In this document: piece after piece, positions 55,349 to 55,606 of the stretch
Position numbering within the stretch: position 1 is the stretch's first letter
How the letters are laid out: the number at the start of each line of letters is the position of its first letter
From: Escherichia coli
GTDB lineage: Bacteria; Pseudomonadota; Gammaproteobacteria; Enterobacterales; Enterobacteriaceae
NCBI RefSeq assembly: GCF_009931435.1
Contig: NZ_CP043414.1
Length of the DNA stretch: 64,000 nt
Reading direction: 5' to 3' (one strand)
Program-made: the position numbers and the translations under genes
The notes under the pieces: model-generated
Database searches by the model: none
What the model saw: only the letters and a program-made list of their open reading frames with translations
What the model was told of the DNA's origin: nothing

Positions 55349-55606
55349 TTATTGAGCAAATTCAAACTGCCTGACCATCCCATCCCGGTTAGCATCAAGA
55401 AAATCTGCCCACCACTGTAGCATTAACCTTCGCTGCTCAAGATGCTTGGCCTTATGGGTATAGGCAGCACGAACACTGTTGCTTTCCTTGTGGATCATCT
55501 GGAGTTCCACCGCATCTTCAGACCATAGCCCTGATTTAATCAGAGCACTACATGCCAGTGTGCGGAAACCATGACCAGAGATGTCCTGTGTGGTGTCATA
55601 GCCCAT
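55349..55606 (-). pseudogene. C-terminal remnant of a second tyrosine integrase
   Basis: 85 aa: ...GHGFRTLACSALI...AAYTH...LMLQWWADFL aligns with the C-terminus of the adjacent intact integrase (HxxR box and catalytic Tyr) but lacks the N-terminal 300+ residues. Confidence 0.7.

Follow-up and report, generated by a model that had tools for sequence, protein, structure and literature searches.

An 85-codon integrase fragment at ssrA in an Escherichia coli island as the probable relic of a replaced Asn-tRNA integrase

At the ssrA end of an island in Escherichia coli, an open reading frame (ORF) of 85 codons lies directly beside an intact tyrosine integrase gene, raising the question of whether it is a small gene in its own right, a copy of its neighbour, what is left of an element integrated in tandem, or the scar of recombination within an older integrase gene. 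The window, by which we mean the whole stretch of 64,000 nt that was analysed (from contig NZ_CP043414.1), is E. coli chromosome, with a smpB-ratA-yfjF-bamE-recN flank 99.8% identical to E. coli genomes, and the island, bounded by an attR remnant (37557-37563) and ssrA (57019), occupies about 19.5 kb of it. The ORF is very probably a relic of the former Asn-tRNA integrase of the island, left behind when an ssrA-specific module replaced the older one. The features at this end are as follows.

57019-57381, minus strand: ssrA (tmRNA) gene, the 3' end of which is the attL of the island
55625-56854, minus strand: intact CP4-57-type (ssrA-specific) P4-family integrase of 409 aa, the putative incoming gene
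55607-55624, minus strand: 18-nt stub of the old integrase gene (CI5, TAACAAGGCACTGCGTAAG; window, TAACAAGAGAATGCATAA)
55349-55606, minus strand: 85-codon ORF with an ATG start, the C-terminal catalytic piece of an EARL/ROD21-type Asn-tRNA integrase
55321-55348, minus strand: 3' flank of the old integrase gene, 28 nt, homologous to CI5

The fragment and its full-length relatives

As had been predicted from the sequence, the ORF encodes the C-terminus of a tyrosine integrase and nothing else. It matches positions 123-170 of the 172 in the Pfam Phage_integrase profile (PF00589; E = 1e-4) with a score of 22.6 bits, which is below the gathering score of 27.1 bits because only a fragment is present. 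The ORF retains the HxxR box (H-G-F-R), the second His (in IHKES), and the Tyr (in RAAY). An alignment of 21 homologues shows both His and the Tyr to be invariant and the Arg nearly invariant. A functional tyrosine recombinase needs the complete Arg-Lys-His-Arg-His/Trp-Tyr set in one catalytic domain, while the ORF has neither the box I Arg nor the Lys region, and it also lacks the domains required for binding DNA, both the arm-type N-terminal domain and the central core-binding domain. Its first codon is a conserved internal Met, the M of a ...LRKMGYD... motif. The ORF has the orientation of the intact integrase, with 18 nt between the stop codon of that gene and the ATG (the predicted 19 bp when counted base to base). 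The possibility that the fragment duplicates the 3' end of its neighbour was ruled out, with just 31% protein identity between the ORF and residues 338-403 of the intact integrase (E = 2e-13).

The origin of the fragment lies in a different group of integrases. The EARL family of islands is defined at Asn-tRNA genes with a conserved integrase/RDF/repeat module and has among its named relatives ROD21 of Salmonella Enteritidis, IE3 of EPEC E2348/69, and ICEKp258.2 (Pina-Iturbe et al. 2018, PMC6035254). Positions 55349-55624 of the window (minus strand) are the last 276 nt of a ROD21-like (EARL) Asn-tRNA integrase gene, with 92.8% DNA and 93% protein identity to the gene of E. coli CI5 (nt 993-1269 of 1269), so that the predicted distinction between the fragment and the intact integrase holds. 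Matches to the 3' ends of full-length integrase genes reach 92.5-92.8% identity over 277-305 nt (E = 6e-121), far beyond chance. The original prediction had proposed a search for strains carrying the ancestral full-length version, and a full-length gene was found within the same island family, in E. coli CI5, M8, GE3, and E2348/69, all of which are listed EARL members at Asn-tRNA sites (Table 1, PMC6035254); the best full-length match is ~93% identical and the parental gene itself was not found. No trace of the first 992 nt of the old gene was detected in the window with blastn and tblastn, in agreement with the claim that the fragment lacks its own N-terminus.

The homologous remnant is longer than the ORF, extending from 55624, where it abuts the stop codon of the intact gene, to 55321. 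Across the junction the window reads TGA, then TAACAAGAGAATGCATAA, a one-nucleotide gap, and ATGGGC, while CI5 reads ...AT and then TAACAAGGCACTGCGTAAGATGGGC. The 1-nt deletion in the stub shifts the frame and puts a TAA directly ahead of the ATG of the ORF, and since that ATG is the conserved internal Met, the 85-codon ORF is an accident of the first start codon available in a truncated gene. Compared with full-length relatives, the 18-nt stub has four substitutions and one deletion in 19 nt and the ORF is ~7% different, a contrast with a binomial p of about 0.01 in a rough hand calculation.

Some of these features would suit a functional small protein, for example a free catalytic C-terminal piece that interferes with the integrases of competing Asn-type islands or complements them in trans. 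The ORF is intact with its HxxR, His, and Tyr, it is less diverged than the stub, it could be co-transcribed from its position 18 nt past the integrase stop, and many homologues of 85-88 aa are called in databases. A search with the 85-aa query matched short proteins only, many of 85-88 aa and from many genera, though the list contained nothing >149 aa (~1.75 times the query) and omitted known full-length relatives, pointing to a length limit on the candidates. As a conserved gene family these homologues were rejected after four genomic contexts had been inspected: the integrase genes are split by IS3 in two loci (L024 and L029) and by a frameshift or deletion in the other two (L025 and L027), and N-terminal pieces of the same integrase gene lie upstream in 4/4. 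The shared length arises because gene callers start at the conserved Met. The observation that was to refute the original prediction, a conserved small gene with its own promoter and homologues of the same length, therefore comes down to same-length homologues that are broken integrase genes.

Other evidence also stands against a functional product. The length of the relic varies by island (276, 186, and 294 nt), and the equivalents in KFu019 and MP1 (see below) are marked as pseudogenes by PGAP (NCBI pipeline). On the minus strand, the region ahead of the ORF showed no sigma-70-like promoter, and a terminator-like hairpin follows the ORF at 55276-55255. The relic branch carries five non-synonymous and four synonymous changes compared to one and ten on the two intact branches, a weak contrast (one-sided Fisher about 0.04, by hand from the counts), and one of the relic-branch changes is Ser to Ile beside the catalytic His. 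Ser10, Lys24, Ile38, and Gln80 (ORF numbering) are residues peculiar to the relic. Neither a promoter of its own, nor same-length homologues in the same context, nor purifying selection, as would be expected of an independent small gene, was thus found, and with two catalytic residues (box I Arg and Lys) and every domain for DNA binding missing as well, a functional 85-aa protein is scarcely credible. The ORF probably does nothing and is the 3' scar of the former integrase of the island. A purine-rich AAGAGAA precedes it and it follows the stop of an expressed gene by 18 nt; some translation may occur, and the relic is probably not expressed to any effect.

The island and its two junctions

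Beyond the integrase region, the island consists of defence cargo, a mobilization backbone, and a left end of different ancestry.

52247-55079, minus strand: Lamassu defence cargo (lmuA, 53991-55079; lmuB, 52247-54019), directly downstream of the relic
38271-52186: EARL-type backbone (RepL, DUF4755, lipoprotein, MobA/MobL relaxase, TraD, PilS-type pilin, PilV), 90-95% identical to E. coli islands
38135-38347, plus strand: chimeric alpA, AlpA-family regulator/excisionase, with the left recombination junction at ~38265-38280
37564-38270, plus strand: left arm and the beginning of alpA (promoter and 5' two-thirds), without homology to Asn-type EARL islands
37557-37563, plus strand: attR remnant GCTGGCG at the chromosome/island boundary, in a position matching the K-12 CP4-57 attR TGGTGGGCTGGCGGAGT

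Over 38162-52190, DNA identity to the islands of CI5 and 2016C-3878 is 90-95%, and such islands are located at tRNA-Asn and at other sites. The island has the EARL backbone, based on Pfam matches for the MobA/MobL relaxase, TraD, and type IV pilus genes and on the 90-95% identity to CI5. The remaining hallmarks of the family are absent, with the island lying between ssrA (57019) and the ypjA flank (37556) and not at an Asn-tRNA gene, and with the ROD21-like excision/integration module reduced to 276 nt of the integrase gene and the 3' third of the RDF gene (alpA). LmuA, with a DUF4297 domain, and LmuB were identified with E = 2e-137 and E = 2e-224, respectively. The Lamassu genes and the last 185 nt of the relic are common to the island of KFu019, with an identity of 96.9% over 49409-55533 and 99.25% over 55000-55533.

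Several further observations were made on the content of the island and its surroundings. Between pilV and the integrase, the cargo differs from one relative to the next, with a VOC-family gene, a gene for a 583-aa hypothetical protein, an HNH and AAA pair, restriction-modification genes, and NOV_C. A segment at 42022-44089 with two ORFs (327 and 305 aa, neither with a Pfam or PADLOC match) is not in the islands of CI5, 2016C-3878, or KFu019 and perhaps represents a second slot for variable cargo. H-NS homologues, both short and full-length, occur in the EARL islands of CI5 and 2016C-3878 in a segment without a counterpart in the window (39108-39178 compared to 9826-11239 of L003 and 4218-7787 of L019). 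The pilus genes at 50107-52186 are a PilS-type pilin and a PilV tip adhesin only, with a Shufflon_N match that covers just the end of the profile, and no other pilus genes, shufflon segments, or recombinase were noticed in the island; it is speculation that the island decorates the thin pilus of a helper plasmid. Outside of the island, ARAGORN predicts a tRNA-Met with a CAT anticodon at 29605-29680, and its position next to the autotransporter gene ypjA, compared with the K-12 map, suggests ileY (tRNA-Ile2). The ypjA region (32735-37396) may represent the remnants of an older island, and two tandem 83-nt copies at 21247-21418, 92% identical and with internal palindromes, are probably intergenic repeats of the REP/BIME type.

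The intact integrase gene is full-length, adjoins the 3' end of ssrA, and encodes all three domains (arm-binding PF13356, central PF22022, and catalytic) at 409 aa, the modal length in a large family that carries the annotation CP4-57 integrase. Among complete E. coli genomes, the closest integrases have 77.8% DNA identity and are also at ssrA, in islands that lack the relic, carry a relaxase annotated as a relaxase/mobilization nuclease domain-containing protein and not as MobQ, and share no other DNA with the window island. Closer relatives occur on EARL-like backbones in other bacteria, with 91% (L013) and 96% (L015) protein identity; the latter value is that of the closest other ssrA-type integrase, and no donor of the incoming gene was found. 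The order in L013 is ssrA, integrase, an unrelated 148-aa ORF, LmuA, LmuB, PilV, TraD, and MobA, and in L015 the integrase lies beside a TraD gene. The backbones of both are just 69-77% identical to that of the window, in a comparison that for L013 reaches the relaxase side, all contigs ending at the same point before the far end of the island. No relic was found in L013, L015, or the other relatives at ssrA.

The right junction was mapped to 55624/55625 from both sides. Whereas the homology of the relic to Asn-type genes begins at the base after the stop codon of the intact integrase, the homology to L013 ends exactly at that stop codon and resumes at 55228. Compared with other relatives, the homology of the integrase ends at the stop codon (L006), 21 nt inside of the gene (L005), or 6 nt past the stop (L015/L016), and the native 3' flanks of four related ssrA integrases are all different. 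At the left junction, the promoter and 5' two-thirds of alpA are closest to the leuX-located relative N56 (75-90%), while the final third closely resembles those of CI5 and 2016C-3878, with 93.0% identity to 2016C-3878 from 38276 on; it is this hybrid alpA that is paired with the ssrA integrase. In CI5 a DUF6387 gene follows alpA towards attR, and this gene is absent from the window island. A search of 5,426 complete E. coli genomes found no relative of the left arm (37564-37896), the only matches being of 73-75% to the alpA regions of other islands. From its position, the entire segment from 37564 to 38270 probably belongs to the incoming integration module.

No copy of the tRNA-Asn 3' end was found in the window at up to 3 mismatches, nor any ssrA 3'-end repeat at up to 3 mismatches in 28 nt, confirming the claim that no att copy separates the fragment and the intact integrase and extending it to the rest of the interior of the island. 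A 10-nt match at 37732 (GGGAGTTGAA) was considered as an att copy and judged to be chance. The attR remnant was located by alignment with the K-12 CP4-57 boundary (L032), where ...CCAATCATGAT is followed by TGGTGGGCTGGCGGAGT; in the window, ...CCAATCATGAT is followed by GCTGGCG and then TCTCTG. The remnant is without TGGTGG(A), 6-7 nt of the expected ssrA repeat. A shortened attR might impair excision and sits oddly with a recently mobile island.

Probable replacement of the integration module

Excision as a circle would join positions 55625-57018 to 37564-38270, so the segments of foreign ancestry at the two ends of the island represent one segment of ~2 kb (alpA 5' part, arm, attP, and integrase) that took the place of its Asn-type counterpart. 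Under the explanation we favour, the ancestor would have been an EARL-type integrative mobilizable element at an Asn-tRNA gene, with a P4-family integrase of 422-426 aa, as in its E. coli relatives. In the ancestor of the window island, ~2 kb, contiguous in the excised circle, would have been exchanged. The old integrase gene would have lost its first 993 nt, and attP(Asn), the DUF6387 gene, and the 5' part of alpA would have gone with them, while an ssrA-targeting element would have supplied another alpA 5' part, the left arm, attP(ssrA), and a complete CP4-57-type integrase of 409 aa. One crossover would have fallen within alpA, in sequence common to related islands, and the other would have been an illegitimate join of the base after the stop codon of the new integrase to nt 993 of the old gene (55624/55625); a homologous cointegrate followed by one deletion is an alternative route to the same structure. 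The last 276 nt of the old gene would simply have been left behind, and a later 1-nt deletion, together with the TAA, would have produced the ORF that opens at the conserved internal Met. Integration of the chimeric island at ssrA would have followed, and then its spread through lineages of E. coli. We infer that the exchange partners were two excised or co-resident islands, and likewise the order of the two crossovers.

The prediction that recombination took place within an older integrase gene, and not by simple tandem integration, is supported by the specificity of the old integrase for tRNA-Asn, the junction inside of alpA, and the absence of the DUF6387 gene and the Asn att site. Tandem accretion would require an Asn-type EARL island downstream of a separate ssrA element, with the two fused by a single deletion between their integrase genes. 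Arrays do occur at the ssrA site, with a prophage between ssrA and the island in L008 and another element before the related integrase in L015, accretion followed by deletion is an established route (PMC5704250), and it plausibly explains a zinT-on-zinT layer in MP1. For the window, however, it is improbable: an Asn-specific integrase would not place an island at ssrA, and the EARL repeats match the 3' ends of Asn-tRNA genes (PMC6035254), with no such repeat in the window. A single deletion would also have spared the far end of the EARL island, yet the junction inside of alpA is there and the DUF6387 gene is gone. It is because one deletion leaves the far end unaltered, and because an Asn-specific integrase would not choose ssrA, that replacement of the module is preferred.

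The exchange could also be read with the opposite polarity, with a resident EARL-like island of the ssrA type that imported a cassette, the Lamassu genes and the integrase tail, from an Asn-type island. In other bacteria, EARL-like backbones already carry ssrA-type integrases (91-96% protein identity), among them L013, where the same Lamassu cargo occurs without a relic, and the block of relic and Lamassu genes is more similar to KFu019 near the relic (99.25%) than over the longer stretch (96.9%). However, ~14 kb of backbone, from the 3' third of alpA to pilV, is 90-95% identical to the Asn-type and zinT-type islands of E. coli and 69-77% identical to the ssrA-type relatives, which makes the integration module of ~2 kb the incoming minority part, and we regard the opposite polarity as very improbable. 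The difference between it and the replacement of the module is mostly one of wording.

The fate of the island after the swap can be followed in other genomes. The exact 409-aa integrase, the identical relic, and the cargo are found together in many draft E. coli assemblies. Among loci L007-L012, compared with 47000-64000 of the window, the DNA of the island has 0-3 mismatches per 7-9 kb, while the smpB-side flank has 38-85 mismatches per 6.6 kb in three loci (0.6-1.3%), a divergence that begins 5 nt from the 5' end of ssrA. In L008, a prophage with its own integrase has since separated ssrA from the island, and 57050 is where homology to the window begins. Near-identical islands in diverged flanks suggest, indirectly, that after the swap the chimeric island passed from lineage to lineage and therefore that the new integrase works, though homologous recombination of the flanking DNA, as opposed to site-specific integration, could also have produced this pattern.

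Integrase turnover and known systems

The window is not the only island with the tail of an older integrase. In KFu019, at a tRNA-Asn site (L001, 6270-6660), an intact Asn-type integrase is followed by an internal piece of a zinT-site-type integrase (nt 1033-1142) and then by a 186-nt relic as in the window, with the zinT-type piece and the Asn-type tail fused out of frame at a CAGGNCTATGG microhomology. In MP1, at the zinT-side site (L018, 4826-5295), the order is an intact integrase, an HNH/AAA pair, a decayed piece of a zinT-type integrase, and a 294-nt Asn-type relic. The relics of the window, KFu019, and MP1 are independent and start at different breakpoints, within nt 981-1084 of the 1269 nt of the Asn-type gene, and EARL-like backbones also occur without a relic at the zinT-side site (2016C-3878) and at leuX (N56). 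Based on the stacked relics in KFu019 and MP1 and the additional sites, integrase turnover is recurrent in EARL-type islands, with each swap trimming the older gene from its 5' side.

In DNA comparisons, the last ~290 nt is the only part of the integrase gene with matches to other integrase subfamilies. A broader reading, which we consider unlikely, is that the last ~290 nt of P4-type integrase genes, a conserved stretch, is a preferred breakpoint zone for the repeated exchange of integration modules from one mobilizable island to another, sometimes with adjacent defence cargo, with the stacked tails forming an ordered fossil record of past addresses. Its extension, that the co-transcribed 85-aa tail interferes with the integrases of competing Asn-type islands, is less likely.

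The relic explains how, in E. coli, a family described only at Asn-tRNA genes is also encountered at ssrA, at leuX, and at the zinT-side site: the module for integration was swapped, and the mobilization backbone and the defence cargo adjacent to the integrase were kept. A limited literature search found Asn-tRNA locations only for EARL islands and no description of ssrA-located EARL-type islands, stacked relics, or an integrase swap, remnant, or fragment. Such scars are datable, ordered evidence of swaps and could be mined to trace the past sites of islands. For annotation, the 85-codon ORF and its look-alikes of 85-88 aa are integrase pseudogene fragments and not genes. The current understanding of tyrosine recombinases and island evolution is unchanged; the relic is an ordinary kind of scar and a well-mapped example of a familiar process.

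Among known systems, the EARL islands are the source of both the relic, with 92-93% DNA identity to the integrase genes of the listed members (CI5, M8, GE3, and E2348/69), and the backbone, in which the MobA/MobL relaxase, TraD, type IV pilin and PilV, AlpA-type RDF, and RepL are 90-95% identical to CI5. Unlike the EARL islands, the window island is at ssrA with a CP4-57-type integrase, retains the last 276 nt only of the EARL integrase gene, has a chimeric RDF gene, and shows no H-NS homologue in the place occupied by those of CI5 and 2016C-3878. With the CP4-57 IntA family (ssrA-specific and P4-type, in Enterobacterales), the intact integrase shares the 409-aa length, the three-domain architecture, and the position at the 3' end of ssrA, and the attR remnant shares its chromosomal junction with the attR of CP4-57 in K-12, though the DNA identity to the nearest integrase in complete E. 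coli genomes is 77.8% and the islands concerned share no other DNA.

Integrase pseudogenes of the P4 type that are split by an IS or a frameshift likewise give called ORFs of 85-102 aa that start at the conserved MGYD Met, but their own N-terminal pieces are just upstream, while in the window a complete and unrelated integrase is upstream. ICEs and IMEs are known to exchange integration/excision modules (reviewed by Guedon et al. 2017, PMC5704250), and the window island likewise keeps its transfer and cargo modules and gains an integrase of a different site specificity. In contrast to those exchanges, the one described here left a physical scar, with both junctions mappable within a few nucleotides, and sister islands bear two stacked scars of successive swaps.
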